The notes: generated by a model from the sequence alone, not told the origin. Positions 31,920 to 49,076 are shown, counted from the first letter of the whole stretch. The stretch: DNA of 61,042 nucleotides, filler included, from Candidatus Lindowbacteria bacterium RIFCSPLOWO2_12_FULL_62_27 (GCA_001784175.1; 2 parts of 2 records of this genome joined end to end with filler, not necessarily neighbours in it); one strand, 5' to 3'. Numbers and translations: made by a program.

Positions 31920-32019
31920 NNNNNNNNNNNNNNNNNNNNNNNNNNNNNNNNNNNNNNNNNNNNTTAATTAATTAANNNNNNNNNNNNNNNNNNNNNNNNN
32001 NNNNNNNNNNNNNNNNNNN
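31920..32019. other. Assembly gap / artificial contig linker
   Basis: 100-nt N run with TTAATTAATTAA (stops in all six frames) at 31964-31975. Confidence 0.95.
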
Positions 32020-32033
32020 CAAAAGTCAAACGG

Positions 32034-32615
32034 ATGTTCGGGACGCTCGACATTGAGACGCGCCGCTATTCAGTTCTTCGCGCCAAAGGGGGACTTCGCA
32101 AGGCCAACGGCAAAACAGTTGACCTCGGCTCCCGCATGGTCCTGATTGACGCGATGGGGATTGACCGCACGCTTCACGATATCCTGCTCGACATTCGGCA
32201 GACGAGCCGAAAAAACACAGACCCCAAACACGAGACGCCCGAGGACAGAGCACGCGCCGCCCGGATGCAATGGCACTACGACCCGATGACGCATTACGTC
32301 CCGCCTGAGTGTCGCGCCACGGCGTCGATGTTTCGCGATCCGGCGGACATGCCCGACCACTCGCTGAAAAAATTCGCCGACGGCACGGTCAGGGCTTTGA
32401 CGGCGGACGAAATCTGCGAGCCATACCCGGACCTGATGCCCGGCGCTGGCGAGCCTTCGCCGTTCCCGGCAGTTGCCCGAGGGGAGAGCATCGACCCCCA
32501 CGAGTTCCAGGTCGACACGGATCCAGCCCGTGAATTGAAATATGGCCACTTCGACCTGACTCCGGTTGTGCGCTTCCTGCACCGCCGTCGCTATCTGGAG
32601 TGGCTCGCCGCGTAG
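32034..32615 (+). CDS. Hypothetical protein, possibly 5'-truncated by the gap
   Basis: Frame is open back to the gap; no motif recognised. Confidence 0.5.
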   Translation: MFGTLDIETRRYSVLRAKGGLRKANGKTVDLGSRMVLIDAMGIDRTLHDILLDIRQTSRKNTDPKHETPEDRARAARMQWHYDPMTHYVPPECRATASMFRDPADMPDHSLKKFADGTVRALTADEICEPYPDLMPGAGEPSPFPAVARGESIDPHEFQVDTDPARELKYGHFDLTPVVRFLHRRRYLEWLAA

Positions 32616-33492
32616 CCCGATCCTGAGCGGTCCCACCCCGCTCCGAAATGCTGGGATAAAAAATCGGGCCCCGAACCCCTCTCCCCTGCCCTCTCCCCAA
32701 GGGAGAGGGTGCGTTGGCGGCGCGGCCGCGCCGCCTTCGCCCCGCCGGTATGCTGAGGCGGGGCGTTGCTGGACGAGAACCCCGAAGCTCAAGCGCCGCA
32801 TGGCTGAATGGGCGCGTGCGGACGCACGCGCTAAAGCATTCTGGCGCGCCGGCCAGTGGAGGTATCTGTGCGCGCCCAACAGCCAGATGGCCCTCCATGG
32901 CAGTCGGTCGGCGGTCATCCTGACCGCCGATCCTCCCCGCAGACCACACCCGACCACCGGCGATGTCAAAACATCGCCGCGAAAGCGGCTGTCACGTTGT
33001 GATCAGCCGCTTTTCATTCGCGGCAAACATTCAGTTCAAAAACAAGCAGGTCAAAAACGTCCTACCAGGGACGGCGACCCGGAAGATCACGGCAACAAGG
33101 CGTGACTCGTCGGCGTTGATTACCGCGCTTCATCCCCACATGGGTCGTGCAAATAACACAGTCCGACGGACAGGACTTGTAAAAACACTGCCAAGACGGT
33201 CGGGGTCACAGAGGCCTGACCCAGCGGTGAGCGCGGTCGGAAGTCCGCGTCGTTACAGAGCGCGTAACCTCTGAACACATATCTATCCCGAGCGAGCCCT
33301 CGCTCAAAATCGCCTCGAAGATCCCCAACCCCGGAGGGTGGGCACCCCGCACATCTCCCACCCGTGCGGCCCTCCGGAACATATACGACCCCGCGTTTGC
33401 ATCTCTCCAGATCGGCGCGCCTCACAAGCGCGGGGTCACTGCCTTATATCCATCATTCCGGTGGCGTCTCCTCCACGCCACCGGCTTTTTTT
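32616..33492 (+). ncRNA. Candidate large structured non-coding RNA (or structured ssDNA element)
   Basis: At least 13 stem-loops or helices in about 880 nt, no credible ORF, ending in an intrinsic terminator. Confidence 0.5.
33458..33492 (+). terminator. Rho-independent terminator
   Basis: CCGGTGGCGT-CTCCTCC-ACGCCACCGG followed by CTTTTTTT. Confidence 0.8.
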
Positions 33493-33524
33493 CAAACAGG
33501 GGGGCGTGCGGCAAGTCCCAACTA

Positions 33525-34627
33525 TTGACACCTGCATAATAATGTCCTAATTTCTGGGTGGGAGGTGGGAACCCATGAGATCTAAAGGAACCCCCGGGGA
33601 ATTGGAACAAAGAAGGATCAAAGCCATCCAGTTGTTGGAGGAAGGACGAAGACCCGTCGAAGTGGCCAGGGTGATCGGAGTAGATCGCCGGAGTGTGAGG
33701 CGTTGGAAATCGGCCTATCGAAAAAAGGGCATGGATGCCGTCCGATATCCAGCCAAATGGGGAAGGCCGGTGAAAATTTCGAGCAAACAGAGTCGGCAAC
33801 TGGAGCGGGATCTTCTGCGAGGAGCGAAATCCTGCGGGTTTTCGACAGATTTGTGGAGCTGCCCTCGGGTTGCCAAGCAGATTCAACGTCGATATGGAAT
33901 CAGTTATCACGTCGATCATATCGGCCGTTTGTTGCGGCGGATGGGATGGAGTCCACAACGGCCAGCCCGACGAGCCATCGAGCGAAATGAAGTGGCCATC
34001 CGGAGATGGGTAAAAGAAAAGTGGCCCCGGTGTAAAAAAAAGCCCACGACCTGAACGCTTTTCTTGTTTTCATAGACGAAAGTGGCGTGTTGATGGCGCC
34101 CTTGGTCCGCCGGACGTGGGCCCCCATCGGTCAAACGCCCATTCTTCAACAGAGAACGCGATCCCATCAAAAAGTTTCGATGATCGCCGCGCTCTGTGTT
34201 CCTCCCAAACGTGATCGAGTTCGGTTGTACTTCCGATTGCATCCGAATGCCAATCTCAATGCCATTACGATTCGCGCCTTCCTGCGTCTTTTGATGCGCC
34301 ATATCCCCGGCAACATCGTCCTGATCTGGGACAACCTTGGGGCGCATCATGGCAAGGTCATGCAAAGCCTTTTGCAAAAGACGCCTCGGCTCCATGTCTT
34401 CCGGTTTCCGCCGTATGCTCCGGAACTCGATCCGGTAGAATATTTCTGGAGTTATTTGAAAACGAAGCCGCTTGCCAACGATGCGCCGGAGGATATTGCC
34501 ACATTGGCCACGAAGGCGCGTTCTCACAGTCGTTCGATACAGAGAACGGACAGACTCCTTCGCTCGTTCGTTCAACACAGTCCTCTCTCTTTGCGCCTCA
34601 GATAGGACATTATTATACAGGTATCAA
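33525..34627 (+). mobile_element. IS630-family insertion sequence
   Basis: 25-bp terminal inverted repeats (TTGACACCTGCATAATAATGTCCTA / TAGGACATTATTATACAGGTATCAA, 2 mismatches) flanked by duplicated TA (33523-24, 34628-29). Confidence 0.93.
33575..34605 (+). CDS. IS630 transposase (HTH ORF plus DDE ORF joined by -1 frameshift)
   Basis: ORF1 33575-34054 is HTH/winged helix; A8G at 34034-34042; -1 frame reads FIDESG...IWDNLGAH...PPYAPELDPVE. Confidence 0.88.
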
Positions 34628-34721: not shown

Positions 34722-35645
34722 ATGAAGGTCCACACCACCTACGCCCGCCGCGTCAACCTCGGTGACTACGGCGAGCATGCGTTTTACAGCGTATCGATCG
34801 ACAAGATGTTCGAGGGCGCGGCACTCTCGGACGCTACGAAGATCGCCCATGAACTCATGGCTGAATGTGAAAAGGCCGTCGTTCACGCGATCCATCGAAA
34901 CGAACCCTCGTCGCAGGTCGGTACACCGCCGCTCGAAGTCCAGACGCAACTGGATGATCTCGCTGCGCAGTCGAAAGCCGCGCCGGTCCAGACAGAGACG
35001 AAAACGGTAGCGGTAGCTGAAACCAAAACCGCTCCCGTTGTCCCGGCGTCACCCGCGCCGTCCCCCGCTCCGAAAGCAGCGGCTCCGGCCACCAAGCCCA
35101 ACGGCAACGGCAATGGTAACGGCAACGGCAAAAAGTCCGTCAAACGCCCGGACGATCCGGCCAGCCCCGCGCAAGTCAGCCTCTACGAAAAACTCTCGCG
35201 GCGCTACGAAAAGTCCACGGGCCAATTGCTCGACAACGCCGTCGGACTCGCCGGCGCATACTTCGCGGACATCAGCAAAGGCCACGCGTCCGAGATCATC
35301 GACAAGGCTCTGGAACTCGTCGCGAAAACCGACCGCACATCCAAGGCCGAATCGCCCAACTCCGCGCCGGGCAAGAAAGCCTTCGTCCTCGCCCAGCCTC
35401 GCCAGCTCTCCTACGCCGAGTCGCTGATCAATCAGCTCGGCCGTCTCATCGGCGAGACCAACACCCACGATTTCGTGGAGTCGACGATCAAGGAGCTTTG
35501 CAAAGGCCGGGTTTACCCCCTGCCGCAGCTCTCCAGCTTCAAAATCTCCAAGCTCATCGACGCGCTCAAAAAGAAAGTCGTCGAATCCAAAAACGGCGAG
35601 CTTGCCCACGCCGGCGTCGCCCACGACGACAACGTCCCGTTTTAA
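34722..35645 (+). CDS. Phage/MGE hypothetical protein with SSB-like acidic DDNVPF tail
   Basis: CAGGAGG RBS; Pro/Ala and NG-repeat linker; two similar short helical modules; C-terminal DDNVPF. Confidence 0.65.
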   Translation: MKVHTTYARRVNLGDYGEHAFYSVSIDKMFEGAALSDATKIAHELMAECEKAVVHAIHRNEPSSQVGTPPLEVQTQLDDLAAQSKAAPVQTETKTVAVAETKTAPVVPASPAPSPAPKAAAPATKPNGNGNGNGNGKKSVKRPDDPASPAQVSLYEKLSRRYEKSTGQLLDNAVGLAGAYFADISKGHASEIIDKALELVAKTDRTSKAESPNSAPGKKAFVLAQPRQLSYAESLINQLGRLIGETNTHDFVESTIKELCKGRVYPLPQLSSFKISKLIDALKKKVVESKNGELAHAGVAHDDNVPF

Positions 35646-35723: not shown

Positions 35724-36557
35724 GTGATCGACTTGAACAATGGCAAGGTCTATCTTTCCGCGAGCAAGATCACCGCCTACCTGTCCTGCCCGCATAAGTT
35801 CCGCCTGCGCTACATCGACCAGGTGCCAACGCCGAACCAGACGTTCTTCATCGTCGGCACCGCCACCCACGCCGGCGTCGAGGCCATCCACATCGGCAAA
35901 TCCCTGCAGGACGCCCTGACGGAAGCCTCTCTCTCGGTCGACGCCGCAACCAGCAAGGAATACGACAACGCTCTGACGCCTGCCGAAATCAACGACCTGG
36001 TCCGCACGCTGGTCACGACCTATCACGAGCAGGCCATCCCGCTCAAAATAACCGCCGTTGAAACGCCGTTCCAAATCGACGGCAACAACGTGGTTCTGAC
36101 CGGCACGGTTGATGCGATGGTCGAAGGCAAGACCGTCCTCGAAATCAAAACCGCCAAACGCGCCTGGTCTCAGCCCCAAGCGGACTTGCAGATCCAGCCG
36201 AGCGTCTACGCATTCGGCTTGGCCTTCGAGAAAAAACTCCCCGGCCCGATCGAAGTCATCTACCGCGTGATCGTGAAGCCGACCAAGAAGTTCCCGAAAG
36301 GCCAGCTCATGGAGCTTCGTACGATCCGGACAAAGGAGCATTTCGACCACCTGATCGCGACGATCAACCAGGTCGGCAAAGCCGTCAGCGCCGGCATCTT
36401 CCCTCGCAACGTCACCCCGGCCTGCGGTTGGTGTGAATTTCGACGGCTCTGCCTTGGCGGCACGCTGCCCAACTACGACCGACCGGATGGAGGGAGTGTC
36501 GCGGGATACAGGGATGTATCAGGAGCGACCGCGGAGAACGGGGGTGATTCAGAATGA
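35724..36557 (+). CDS. PD-(D/E)XK RecB-like exonuclease (Cas4/AddB-like Cys pattern)
   Basis: LSASKI..YLSCP, GTATH, GTVD..EIKT, Q..VY, CGWCEFRRLC. Confidence 0.85.
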   Translation: MIDLNNGKVYLSASKITAYLSCPHKFRLRYIDQVPTPNQTFFIVGTATHAGVEAIHIGKSLQDALTEASLSVDAATSKEYDNALTPAEINDLVRTLVTTYHEQAIPLKITAVETPFQIDGNNVVLTGTVDAMVEGKTVLEIKTAKRAWSQPQADLQIQPSVYAFGLAFEKKLPGPIEVIYRVIVKPTKKFPKGQLMELRTIRTKEHFDHLIATINQVGKAVSAGIFPRNVTPACGWCEFRRLCLGGTLPNYDRPDGGSVAGYRDVSGATAENGGDSE

Positions 36558-36793: not shown

Positions 36794-37660
36794 ATGAACA
36801 AGGTCTATCAAATCATTACCGAGCGCATCATCGACAGAATGAAACAGGGGATCATCCCGTGGCAGCGGCCGTGGCACGCGCGCCAACAGACCCCAAAAAA
36901 TCTTGTCACGAAACTGCCCTACCACGGGACAAACTTCTTTCTCCTGTGGTCGCTGGGGTATGAAAGCCCGTACTTCCTCACGATGCGGCAAGCCAACGAA
37001 CTCGGCGGCTCTATTCGGGCGGGAGAAAAGGCTTTGCCGGTCGTGTTCTGGAAGATCCTCAAATTCGACGAGGAAATTTCTTCGGATGGACAACCCAAGA
37101 AAGTACCCATGCTTCGTTACTACCATGTGTTCAATTCGTCCCAATGCGAAAATCTCGCCGGTAAAATTCCCAGCTACACGGACGTGGACAATCCATTCTC
37201 GCCAATCGAAGCCGCGGAACTCGCCGTCGATAACATGTCTGCGCGCCCGTGCATCGAACATGGCCATACGCGCGCGTACTACAGCCCCGTGAACGACTTG
37301 ATCTGTCTGCCTTCGCCCGAAAGATTCGACCGGCCGGAGGACTACTACGCAACGCTCTTCCACGAGCTCGTTCACAGCACCGGCCATGCCACAAGACTGT
37401 CCCGCCGGGATTGGCTGTCGGGCGACGACAAACACGACGCCTATTCAAAGGAAGAACTGGTCGCCGAAATGGGCGCAACGTTTCTCTGCGCCGAAACCGG
37501 CATCTTGGCCTCACAGGTTGATCGTTCGGCGGCGTATATTCAAAGCTGGATCGAAACATTCGAAAACAACCACCGCCTGATTTTCACGGCCGCAACCCAC
37601 GCCCAGAAGGCGGTTGACTTCATTTTGAACCGCATGGCGGTTCACGTAGCTTCGAATTGA
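36794..37660 (+). CDS. ardC: ArdC-family antirestriction / ssDNA-binding protein with zincin-like domain
   Basis: VYQIITERII..PWQRPW, YHGTN, LTMRQANELGG, VFNSSQ, FHELVHSTGH..RL.R, YSKEELVAE. Confidence 0.88.
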   Translation: MNKVYQIITERIIDRMKQGIIPWQRPWHARQQTPKNLVTKLPYHGTNFFLLWSLGYESPYFLTMRQANELGGSIRAGEKALPVVFWKILKFDEEISSDGQPKKVPMLRYYHVFNSSQCENLAGKIPSYTDVDNPFSPIEAAELAVDNMSARPCIEHGHTRAYYSPVNDLICLPSPERFDRPEDYYATLFHELVHSTGHATRLSRRDWLSGDDKHDAYSKEELVAEMGATFLCAETGILASQVDRSAAYIQSWIETFENNHRLIFTAATHAQKAVDFILNRMAVHVASN

Positions 37661-47151: not shown

Positions 47152-48330
47152 TTATGCGGTGGTTAATTCCCATAAAACAATCTCGGGTGGGCAAAGAAAC
47201 CGCACGCGCGGAGAGCCACGGCCTTCAAGACCAATCCCTCTCGAAACGTACAGAATCATATCGCCCACCTGGTATCGACCCGATTCGAAGCGCTTCCCAT
47301 ATAGTGACGACGTATATAATGCGCCATAGAAGGGCAGGCAAACTTGCCCGCCATGAGTATGACCGGACAATTGAAGATCAATGGCCATCCGGGCCGCATC
47401 AGGCGCGATATCCGGCGTGTGATACAGCAATAAGGTAAATCGGTTGGACTGGCCATCTAGGACAGATTGAAGGCGAGGGGCATCTACAAAAGGTTTGTGC
47501 GTGCAATCAATACCCACGAGATTGATTATGTCGCCTCGAATGTCCACCGTAATCGTTTCGTTTCGAACCAGTTTGATCGGCAAGTCCTCGAAAAGATTTT
47601 CTACAATGTCCGCCTTGTCGACCACGGGACTGCCCGTTACGGCATAGATGCCAAACGGGGCCGAAAGCGTGCGCAGTACTTCCCTCGCGTCCTCCCATGT
47701 TTCCTGCGCGTAGATATAGGAAAGATTCAGATAATCGCCGGTGAGAACAATCAAATCGGCCGATATCGACCGAACCTCCTGGATAAGCCGCCGCTCTCGT
47801 GATGTGATACGCTCGATATGCAAATCCGAAAGATGGAGAATCCGGATCGGCATATTTGATTTCAATTTCTTTGACCGTAACATTTGGCAGCTGACTCGAA
47901 GCTGCTGTGGTTCGATCCAAAATCCATAGACAACGAGTAGTGTCCCAATGAGATGGGCAGGAATGAGAAACTGAAACGGCAAGAACGCCCACGGAATTCT
48001 GAGGCAAGCCAGCATAAGGGTTGGCGGCTTGGCCGGACCGAATGATCTCCCGGTAGCAGGAAGTGCGGCCAACAGCGCCCAGTCTGAAAGGAAAAAAACA
48101 TATGGGATGACGGCATATGGCCACTGGCCACGCGCTGGAATCCAGGCAAGGCCGAAAAGGATTGCGGCAAAAATTGCTGACGGTAACCGTTCTACCTTGT
48201 CCAGAATATCCAGAAGTGAGTTCCTCCACCCGCTGCCAGTGCCAGGGAAACTGCTGTGTTTGGAGTAGTCAGCCCTGGACATGGAGGGACCATCGGCGGA
48301 ATTGAACCGCCAACCCCCGCGCATCGTCAA
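47152..48330 (-). CDS. Membrane-anchored metallophosphoesterase (YkuE-like)
   Basis: HLSDLH, TGDY, HTPD, SGHTHGGQV, VSRGIG, R..CPPEI. Confidence 0.85.
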   Translation of the reverse strand: MTMRGGWRFNSADGPSMSRADYSKHSSFPGTGSGWRNSLLDILDKVERLPSAIFAAILFGLAWIPARGQWPYAVIPYVFFLSDWALLAALPATGRSFGPAKPPTLMLACLRIPWAFLPFQFLIPAHLIGTLLVVYGFWIEPQQLRVSCQMLRSKKLKSNMPIRILHLSDLHIERITSRERRLIQEVRSISADLIVLTGDYLNLSYIYAQETWEDAREVLRTLSAPFGIYAVTGSPVVDKADIVENLFEDLPIKLVRNETITVDIRGDIINLVGIDCTHKPFVDAPRLQSVLDGQSNRFTLLLYHTPDIAPDAARMAIDLQLSGHTHGGQVCLPFYGALYTSSLYGKRFESGRYQVGDMILYVSRGIGLEGRGSPRVRFLCPPEIVLWELTTA

Positions 48331-49076
48331 CCCCCGACAAACCCTTTTGCCATGTTCCAGACCGCTTCAAAGAAATTGCTCTGGATCTTCCGGAACAGGG
48401 CAAACGACTCTGGATTGCCGACGAAGGGCCTCAATATCCACGACATCTGGGCCCCGACAAACCCGTAGATCAATATCCAGATTCGCAGAATCGTGAGGTT
48501 CGGCTCCCGCCCACTGCGCTCCGCCAGACTTGTCATGGCTCGCCAGATCCACATCACCCCGAACGCGCCTGCAATGGCGCACATCGCCACGTTCAGCAGC
48601 GTGATAAAATCGTGGCCGCCGGCTGAGATCGCGAAAAACAGCAGGATCGGCGCAAACGACGCCAGAATCGTGGCCGTCAAATACGCCGCCATGGACAGCA
48701 CCGCCGTGCACTGGAGAAACGAGAGTTTCGACCCCAGAATCACATTGAACGTAAACAGCGCCGGCAGGCAGATCAGAAGCGACAGCACGATCAGGGTGGG
48801 CACTTTCAGGCCGGCTGCCGGAATCTGCCACCCCGCCGCGAAAAACCCTAGCCCCAGCCCATAGATCACAGAAAACGCGAGCGTCCACCGTGCAAAATAC
48901 GCGATCGTGGGTAAGAGATCCTTCCCCTCGGCGATTTGCGCATAGAGTCTCTCCGGAGCCCGCAGGACCAGCGTCCCGGGCGTGGCATTCGGCGGTATGG
49001 GTTCTTCTTCGAAATCGTCTTCCGGTTCCGGCTCCGCGGGCCGTTCACCGGCAGTGTCGGTTGAAACGGTGTCCAT
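48327..49076 (-). CDS. Multi-pass membrane protein
   Basis: Five to six TM segments; YGFVGAQMSWILRPFVG. Confidence 0.7.
   Translation of the reverse strand: MDTVSTDTAGERPAEPEPEDDFEEEPIPPNATPGTLVLRAPERLYAQIAEGKDLLPTIAYFARWTLAFSVIYGLGLGFFAAGWQIPAAGLKVPTLIVLSLLICLPALFTFNVILGSKLSFLQCTAVLSMAAYLTATILASFAPILLFFAISAGGHDFITLLNVAMCAIAGAFGVMWIWRAMTSLAERSGREPNLTILRIWILIYGFVGAQMSWILRPFVGNPESFALFRKIQSNFFEAVWNMAKGFVGG

Follow-up and report, generated by a model that had tools for sequence, protein, structure and literature searches.

The window, i.e., the whole stretch of 61,042 nucleotides that we analyzed, consists of two contigs joined at positions 31920–32019 by an artificial spacer without strand and with stops in all six frames (N44-TTAATTAATTAA-N44). 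Gene neighborhoods across this joint are not to be read as contiguous, and because the joint is artificial, the PP2C, ECF sigma factor and kinase-helicase genes to its left are not true neighbors of the region studied here. The first contig carries a dense island of defense type between 946 and 31904. It encodes RmuC, an SNF2 helicase, a 1706-aa methylase of the Eco57I/MmeI type, a 1435-aa TPR/UvrD_C protein, a 1986-aa DEAD helicase that carries an MrfA zinc domain and, at its C terminus, an S24 peptidase, and a 1393-aa fusion of Ser/Thr kinase, SF1 helicase and REase, which is encoded beside the ECF sigma factor and PP2C phosphatase genes.

The second contig opens within a YAcAr/SLOG-domain gene on the + strand, of which the contig start has left only the 3′ part (193 codons, 32020–32615). 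The 193-aa open reading frame at 32034–32615 corresponds to the C-terminal half of a protein of 373 aa. The complete form is present in the related locus L001 and carries the YAcAr/SLOG domain in its N-terminal part. A protein search with the fragment gave no match because the contig cut truncates the gene; the full 373-aa form had three matches. The SLOG/YAcAr gene lies 5′ of the RNA unit described below in four of five loci and is missing in L011.

To the right of the hairpin-rich region, the window carries an IS630-family insertion (33525–34627, + strand) with inverted ends of about 25 bp and a TA duplication at its flanks. The transposase is encoded in two pieces, an HTH ORF (33575–34054) and a DDE_3 ORF (34087–34605). 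Since the insertion is missing from all four other loci, it is judged to be recent and private to the window. The module that follows starts with the gene of a 307-aa protein (34722–35645, AGGAGG 8 nt upstream), and continues with a PD-(D/E)XK exonuclease gene (35724–36557) and an ArdC-type anti-restriction gene (36794–37660). Without the insertion, the native order hence is terminator, about 130 nt of spacer, 307-aa gene, exonuclease and ArdC, all on the + strand; the spacer ahead of the 307-aa gene is itself well conserved. The original prediction had pointed to folded ssDNA signals near ardC/ssb genes as one parallel. The ardC gene is found 3.3 kb 3′ of the RNA region, and no SSB family was present among the ORFs scanned.

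Farther rightward, genes for a holin, a large terminase, a capsid protein and a prohead protease lie on the − strand. In genome G001, a tyrosine integrase gene is found just past a RepA_C gene upstream of the RNA unit, and L001 has a RepA_C gene together with the SLOG/YAcAr gene upstream of it. Coupling protein (PF02534) and MobA-type relaxase (PF03432) had no match in the incomplete assembly of G001, and Pfam and PHROGs returned only RepA_C and the SLOG domain for the upstream genes in L011 and L001. Because an integrase and phage head genes are present and conjugation genes were not found, we read the carrier, from its gene content, as an integrative phage-like element without recognizable conjugative character. 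The element genes of G001–G003 share 83–94% DNA identity with those of the window. The RNase P RNAs of these three genomes, located elsewhere in them, are only 76–82% identical to one another. As the element is more alike than the host RNase P RNAs, it has probably moved between the three species more recently than the species diverged. Beyond the cluster of phage-like head genes, at 48286–48366 on the − strand, lies a tRNA-Val (GAC) gene, which may serve the element as attachment site.

The 307-aa protein belongs to a very rare family with five matches among 1.8 billion representatives. In its structure model, an N-terminal β-hairpin domain is connected through a disordered Asn/Gly/Pro-rich linker to two helical domains of about 70 aa. 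Foldseek gave no match at E ≤ 0.001 in two libraries; there was a weak likeness to the C-terminal domain of Red-beta (E 0.6, TM by target 0.75), and the best score in the ESM Atlas was 0.84, a lead only. The Red-beta C-terminal domain binds lambda exonuclease. From the model likeness and the gene position directly 5′ of the exonuclease gene, we propose that the 307-aa protein may be a partner of the adjoining PD-(D/E)XK exonuclease.

The stretch between the SLOG gene and the insertion (32616–33492) had been described as a single structured region of about 880 nt. It is hairpin-rich and folds beyond shuffled controls, but the element conserved in relatives comprises only 606 nt (32887–33492, + strand), and the 5′ third is variable. 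By this comparison the 877-nt region is a composite of a variable spacer and a conserved unit. Homology between the window and its relatives ends at 32709 and restarts at 32887. The spacer (32616–32886, no strand assigned) is made of GC-rich palindromes and is not conserved in L001, L003/L013 and L005. Its five stems, at 32625–32643, 32689–32709, 32716–32735, 32738–32765 and 32812–32831, had all been counted as part of the structure and are replaced by unrelated sequence in the relatives. The last ∼54 nt of the spacer (32833–32886) are common to the window and L011 only; from 32833 on, L011 shares sequence with the window, and its upstream region is wholly different and lacks the SLOG gene.

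One of the spacer hairpins (32676–32711, GGGAGAGGG type) is a dispersed repeat. We found it on dozens of unrelated metagenome contigs, on both strands, in four of four metagenome runs and with a summed depth of 80–994. It hence behaves like a REP/BoxC-type palindrome, with many copies in unrelated contexts, and the conserved unit does not. A second small hairpin (∼32785–32827) was found again elsewhere in related elements. From these comparisons, 32616–32886 is an ordinary palindromic spacer that lies outside the unit.

Our comparison set comprised five distinct sequences, i.e., the window and the loci L001, L005, L003/L013 and L011. Three loci were obtained by scanning species genomes for the flanking protein, and two more (L011 and L013) by scanning metagenomes with a gapped core pattern. 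Only these two of the 15 loci found by the pattern scan were true relatives; the other 13 were rejected as members of an unrelated AT-rich sequence family or as chance matches. Ten AT-rich loci (L009, L010, L012 and L014–L020) had an identical 43-nt match to the pattern and similar flanks, and by their sequences form a conserved family unrelated to the RNA unit. All relatives are assigned by name to uncultured bacteria of Candidatus Lindowbacteria and represent one narrow clade. Whole-genome BLAST and a covariance model found the unit as a single copy in each of G001, G002 and G003, and it is also present in L011; a covariance model of the core detected no extra copies or diverged paralogues in G001–G003 or the compared loci. 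There were no matches to the region by blastn in plasmid and phage records, and none in IMG/VR for a 22-nt core word, the SLOG fragment or a profile of the 307-aa family. Taxon-wide searches around G001 returned only the three genomes already found, and four DNA runs with a small share of matches yielded only the dispersed repeat and already known relatives. Among the 17 sequencing runs listed as containing the region, there was no RNA run. In a full-text search for literature naming Lindowbacteria, none of the listed titles and abstract openings gave non-coding RNA as a subject.

Rfam 15, in which ROOL, GOLLD, OLE, RNase P, tmRNA and group II introns are represented, had no match at gathering score in the whole window. 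A permissive scan of 32400–33700 gave nine matches up to E 10, all below the gathering score and without ROOL, GOLLD or OLE. The best of them was RF02470 Ms_IGR-8, a Mycobacterium sRNA, with 31.7 bits compared with a gathering score of 44, and this was also the sole sub-threshold family in all four relatives. The likeness is confined to one hairpin of 53 nt (32982–33034) on the − strand, i.e., opposite to the unit; most likely, any terminator-like stem with an A/U tract would score in this way.

Within the unit, an ultra-conserved core of 235 nt (32954–33188, + strand), built of predicted local hairpins and A-rich linkers, was variable at only 13 of 235 sites and was 96.6–98.3% identical in all ten pairwise comparisons of the five loci. 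The flanking genes of the same loci differed at 11.8–29.9% of third and 0.8–4.9% of second codon positions. Measured in this way, the core is constrained as tightly as second codon positions, and the alignments demonstrate strong purifying selection on this non-coding sequence. Outside the core, the unit has diverged by 13–36%. No ORF is common to all five loci; the unit has no kept reading frame, its indels include some of 1 nt, and the variable sites of the core show no third-position bias. The overlapping ORFs are not conserved in the relatives, and their earlier dismissal as spurious was correct.

Larger insertions, each in one relative, are all found at a predicted loop, at a hairpin tip or just past a hairpin. 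L011 has a 60-nt insertion of two hairpins (L011:∼811–868, − strand) in the loop 33082–33089, L013 has 74 additional nt after 33304, just past the hairpin 33291–33304, and in L005 a hairpin tip (33202–33217 in the window) is replaced by a hairpin about 21 nt longer. These hairpin-sized insertions could be expansion segments or miniature insertions. The unit is located directly upstream of the 307-aa gene in all five loci, even though the upstream region of L011 differs, and this arrangement in the compared sequences establishes a constant linkage to the downstream module that is independent of the upstream neighbor.

We analyzed folding against dinucleotide shuffles, the check that had been proposed for the region. 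With RNA parameters, the 877 nt gave z-scores of −8.03 on the + and −5.08 on the − strand, the 606-nt unit −7.58 and −3.32, respectively. A coding control, the 516 nt just upstream, gave +0.75. DNA parameters yielded the same picture for the unit (z −8.14 on the + and −3.82 on the − strand), and because of this agreement thermodynamics cannot separate an RNA from single-stranded DNA of the + strand.

The consensus fold of the five sequences is a string of local hairpins, in which seven of the stems predicted at the outset recur (32908–32930, 32958–32979, 32982–33013, 33203–33222, 33290–33305, 33331–33377 and 33387–33437); no long-range helix was supported. Fifteen of 155 consensus pairs had changed on both sides, compared with 6.2 ± 1.7 in shuffles (none of 500 reached 15) and 1–5 in slid controls. 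This count is drawn from five sequences, so that its power is low, and their relatedness can inflate it. The compensatory changes are confined to peripheral helices, i.e., 32909–32929, 33197–33222, 33231–33250, 33291–33304, 33389–33435 and the terminator, and establish by comparative criteria that the hairpins around the core have been kept. In L005, both partners have changed in two pairs of the 5′ hairpin (32909–32929, + strand). Compensatory changes were also found in the variable middle of the unit (33186–33304, + strand; hairpins 33186–33229, 33231–33250, 33252–33276 and 33291–33304). There follow a second nearly invariant hairpin (33331–33377, + strand) of 8 and 6 bp with an internal loop in the consensus fold, and an 11-bp hairpin (33389–33435, + strand) with three pairs changed on both sides. 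Covariation among the homologues thus lies around the core only; the core itself hardly varies, and its fold is a predicted one. Four of its variable sites fall on paired and nine on unpaired positions of the consensus fold (p 0.09); when the window alone is folded, the split is seven and six and gives no signal.

Two long-range helices were considered. Segments 33122–33129 and 33230–33237, described at the outset as enclosing a subdomain, are perfect 8-bp complements in the window, but they have no compensatory change and compete with the local hairpin 33231–33250, in which the pair 33234/33247 has changed on both sides. A closing helix 32897–32903/33187–33193, suggested by the single-sequence fold, was rejected as it is not kept in the relatives. 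Direct repeats or iterons were not found within the unit.

The unit closes with an intrinsic terminator, as the original prediction had stated. A terminator scan located it at 33458–33492 on the + strand, with a 10-bp stem (8 GC), a 7-nt loop and a T7 run. Three of the ten stem pairs have changed on both sides and the T-run is kept in five of five loci, so that a GC-rich stem-loop with a U-run, typical of Rho-independent termination, has been maintained in the relatives; in those without the IS630 insertion it ends about 130 nt before the next gene. Within the core, the hairpin 32984–33011 is also terminator-like and is followed by UUUUCAUU. Short U-runs also follow several of the core hairpins when these are read on the − strand. 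Sigma-70-like −35/−10 sites were not found on either strand between 31700 and 34900 (shuffle mean 1.1), where the sigma-70 consensus may not be that of the phylum. A wobble test on a structure predicted without G-U pairs, itself a weak test of strand, counted eight G-U and four A-C pairs (p 0.19). We assign the unit to the + strand because the covarying canonical terminator lies on it and the excess stability is larger there; from the sequence, transcription would run rightward and end at 33492. A terminator/anti-terminator pairing of 32953–32959 with 33458–33464 was rejected because it loses a pair in L001-type sequences, and no covarying antiterminator or alternative pairing was found in the five-sequence alignment and consensus fold.

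From the comparative evidence, the unit is probably a functional RNA of the + strand. In this respect the earlier proposal of an undescribed large non-coding RNA fits a conserved, hairpin-rich, non-coding sequence with compensatory changes in several stems and no Rfam family at gathering score, although its length is about 606 and not 880 nt. Our preferred reading, which we hold somewhat more likely than not, is that 32887–33492 is a structured RNA gene of about 0.6 kb in the early module (recombination, anti-restriction) of an integrated phage-like element of uncultured groundwater Lindowbacteria. An RNA-level gate on the early operon would be the likeliest mechanism, to which we give less than even confidence. 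We favor it because the unit always lies directly upstream of the module, is oriented like it and has a terminator at its end. Transcripts would then stop at the terminator 33458–33492, and possibly also at the hairpin 32984–33011 with its UUUUCAUU tract, and this stop would be either reinforced or lifted by the conserved core in its folded or processed form. The IS630 insertion now sits between the terminator and the operon, which shows that, at least in the window, read-through is not currently needed. In a search for exact 12-mer complementarity between the RNA and the rest of the window, seven matches were found compared with about four expected by our own estimate, none of them at a gene start.

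A less probable but serious alternative is a stand-alone large RNA, trans-acting or architectural in the manner of ROOL and GOLLD, with no regulatory tie to the operon. The terminator would then do no more than close the RNA gene, with transcription of the 307-aa gene starting from a promoter of its own within the ∼130 nt between them; the conservation of this spacer agrees with such a role. The unit's size (about 600 nt), its abundance of GC-rich hairpins separated by A-rich linkers, its invariant core, its tolerance of hairpin-sized insertions and its own strong terminator would all suit this explanation, and both terminator and operon are still intact despite the IS630 insertion that separates them. 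Yet Rfam shows no homology of the unit at gathering score, nor do ROOL, GOLLD or OLE appear up to E 10; its long-range helices are unsupported, leaving local hairpins only, and no tRNA genes were found adjoining it. According to PMC12286853, ROOL, GOLLD and OLE form homo-oligomeric complexes of RNA only.

It is unlikely that the unit acts at the DNA level, i.e., as folded single-stranded DNA or a protein-binding array (Frpo/ssi/sso, a RepA origin or a packaging site). The hairpins fold equally well with DNA parameters, compensatory changes fit RNA and single-stranded DNA alike, and a near-invariant core of only predicted fold would suit a dense protein-binding region; RepA_C and SLOG/YAcAr genes lie upstream in L001, and ardC downstream. 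Nevertheless, the folded single-stranded origin or promoter that had been offered as a second possibility fits poorly. Neither strand has a −35/−10-like pair by the sigma-70 consensus, which may not apply to this phylum, the excess folding is on the sense and not the template strand, and the unit contains no direct repeats or iterons. Moreover, it is closed by a canonical terminator with a conserved U-run. Genes for terminase, capsid, protease and integrase are present in its carrier, and neither a coupling protein nor a MobA-type relaxase was matched in the incomplete G001 assembly. The unit's ∼600 nt also exceed the regulatory regions of 50–350 bp considered in the Frpo search of PMC11541004.

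Still less likely is a pile-up of terminators and palindromes without dedicated function, the core of which was recently exchanged between elements. For the 5′ 270 nt such a description holds, as they are variable and contain the dispersed repeat and the second repeated hairpin; also, the element is mobile and more alike between genomes than RNase P RNA. The core, however, retains its identity in ten of ten pairs while both flanks have diverged by 12–30% at neutral-like sites. That these 235 nt were homogenized over and over in five lineages is unlikely; the core occurs as a single copy, and the peripheral stems have been kept by compensatory changes. Finally, hidden small protein-coding genes are very improbable: a 51–58-codon ORF with GTG start occurs in three of five loci (L011, L001 and L013), but in the window this frame has no start codon and in L005 an insertion of 1 nt disrupts it, the core itself contains 1-nt indels and its 13 variable sites are split 4/5/4 over the three phases (hand count) with no 3-base periodicity, and the 103-codon ORF 32963–33274 reads ATG-TGA in the relatives.

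Returning to the structured RNA gene as our preferred reading, we consider, with less than even confidence, that it may represent a new class of ∼0.6-kb structured RNA, so far confined to integrative phage-like Lindowbacteria elements, which would govern their early recombination and anti-restriction program. If so, the constraint on the core would be in keeping with catalysis, with a role as ribonucleoprotein scaffold or with self-assembly into an ornate RNA, and the unit might reveal a new way for mobile elements to control or protect early genes. To our knowledge, few bacterial non-coding RNAs exceed about 500 nt, and the known large ones (OLE, GOLLD, ROOL and others) are mostly biochemically unusual; a further one, from a phylum without cultured member, would add a new sequence class. 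There is also a practical lesson, as the window proved to be an artificial contig join, about one third of the structure reported for the region consists of repeat-type palindromes, and the transposase belongs to a private insertion.

Among known systems, REP/BoxC-type palindromes resemble only the hairpin 32676–32711 with its many copies on unrelated contigs and both strands; in contrast, the conserved unit is single-copy. Frpo/ssi promoters share with the unit a hairpin-rich non-coding stretch, in one orientation, upstream of an anti-defense-type gene, here ardC. As described in PMC11541004, their stem mimics a duplex −35 (TTGACA) and −10 (TATAAT) with an UP element, and the regulatory regions of 50–350 bp were taken from upstream of leading-region ORFs. 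The unit has no such promoter-mimic stem, no −35, −10 or UP elements by the sigma-70 consensus, is longer at about 600 nt compared with at most 350 bp there, and does not adjoin a conjugative leading-region ORF. It is moreover separated from the gene by a terminator and about 130 nt and folds more strongly on the sense strand, and unlike the plasmids with their leading regions its carrier was found to have genes of phage type and for an integrase, and none for conjugation.

There are parallels in principle among phage leaders. Satellite phage P4 uses RNA-based immunity (CI RNA, seqA-B-C leader) and HK022 uses put antiterminator RNAs; such leaders act on terminators farther downstream through complementary segments within the leader or a stem-loop pair that modifies the polymerase. 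With these the unit shares the arrangement of a structured non-coding leader before early genes and a terminator between leader and first gene, and the downstream genes, i.e., putative exonuclease partner, exonuclease and anti-restriction, resemble a lambda pL-type early-left operon. The likeness is limited to position and terminator. The unit differs in being several times larger, and no covarying internal repeat or complement pair was found in it.

ROOL and GOLLD are carried by phage-like mobile elements and prophages, and tRNA genes are said to be their typical neighbors. Compared with ROOL, GOLLD and OLE, the unit lacks Rfam homology, supported long-range helices and flanking tRNA genes, is narrowly distributed (one candidate phylum, five loci), and is located directly upstream of an early operon in the same direction. 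It resembles them in its size class of about 0.6 kb, its many GC-rich hairpins with A-rich linkers, its non-coding nature and its phage-like carrier. Judged by these sequence features, we would place the unit as a new candidate class among a known kind, the large structured RNAs of mobile elements.
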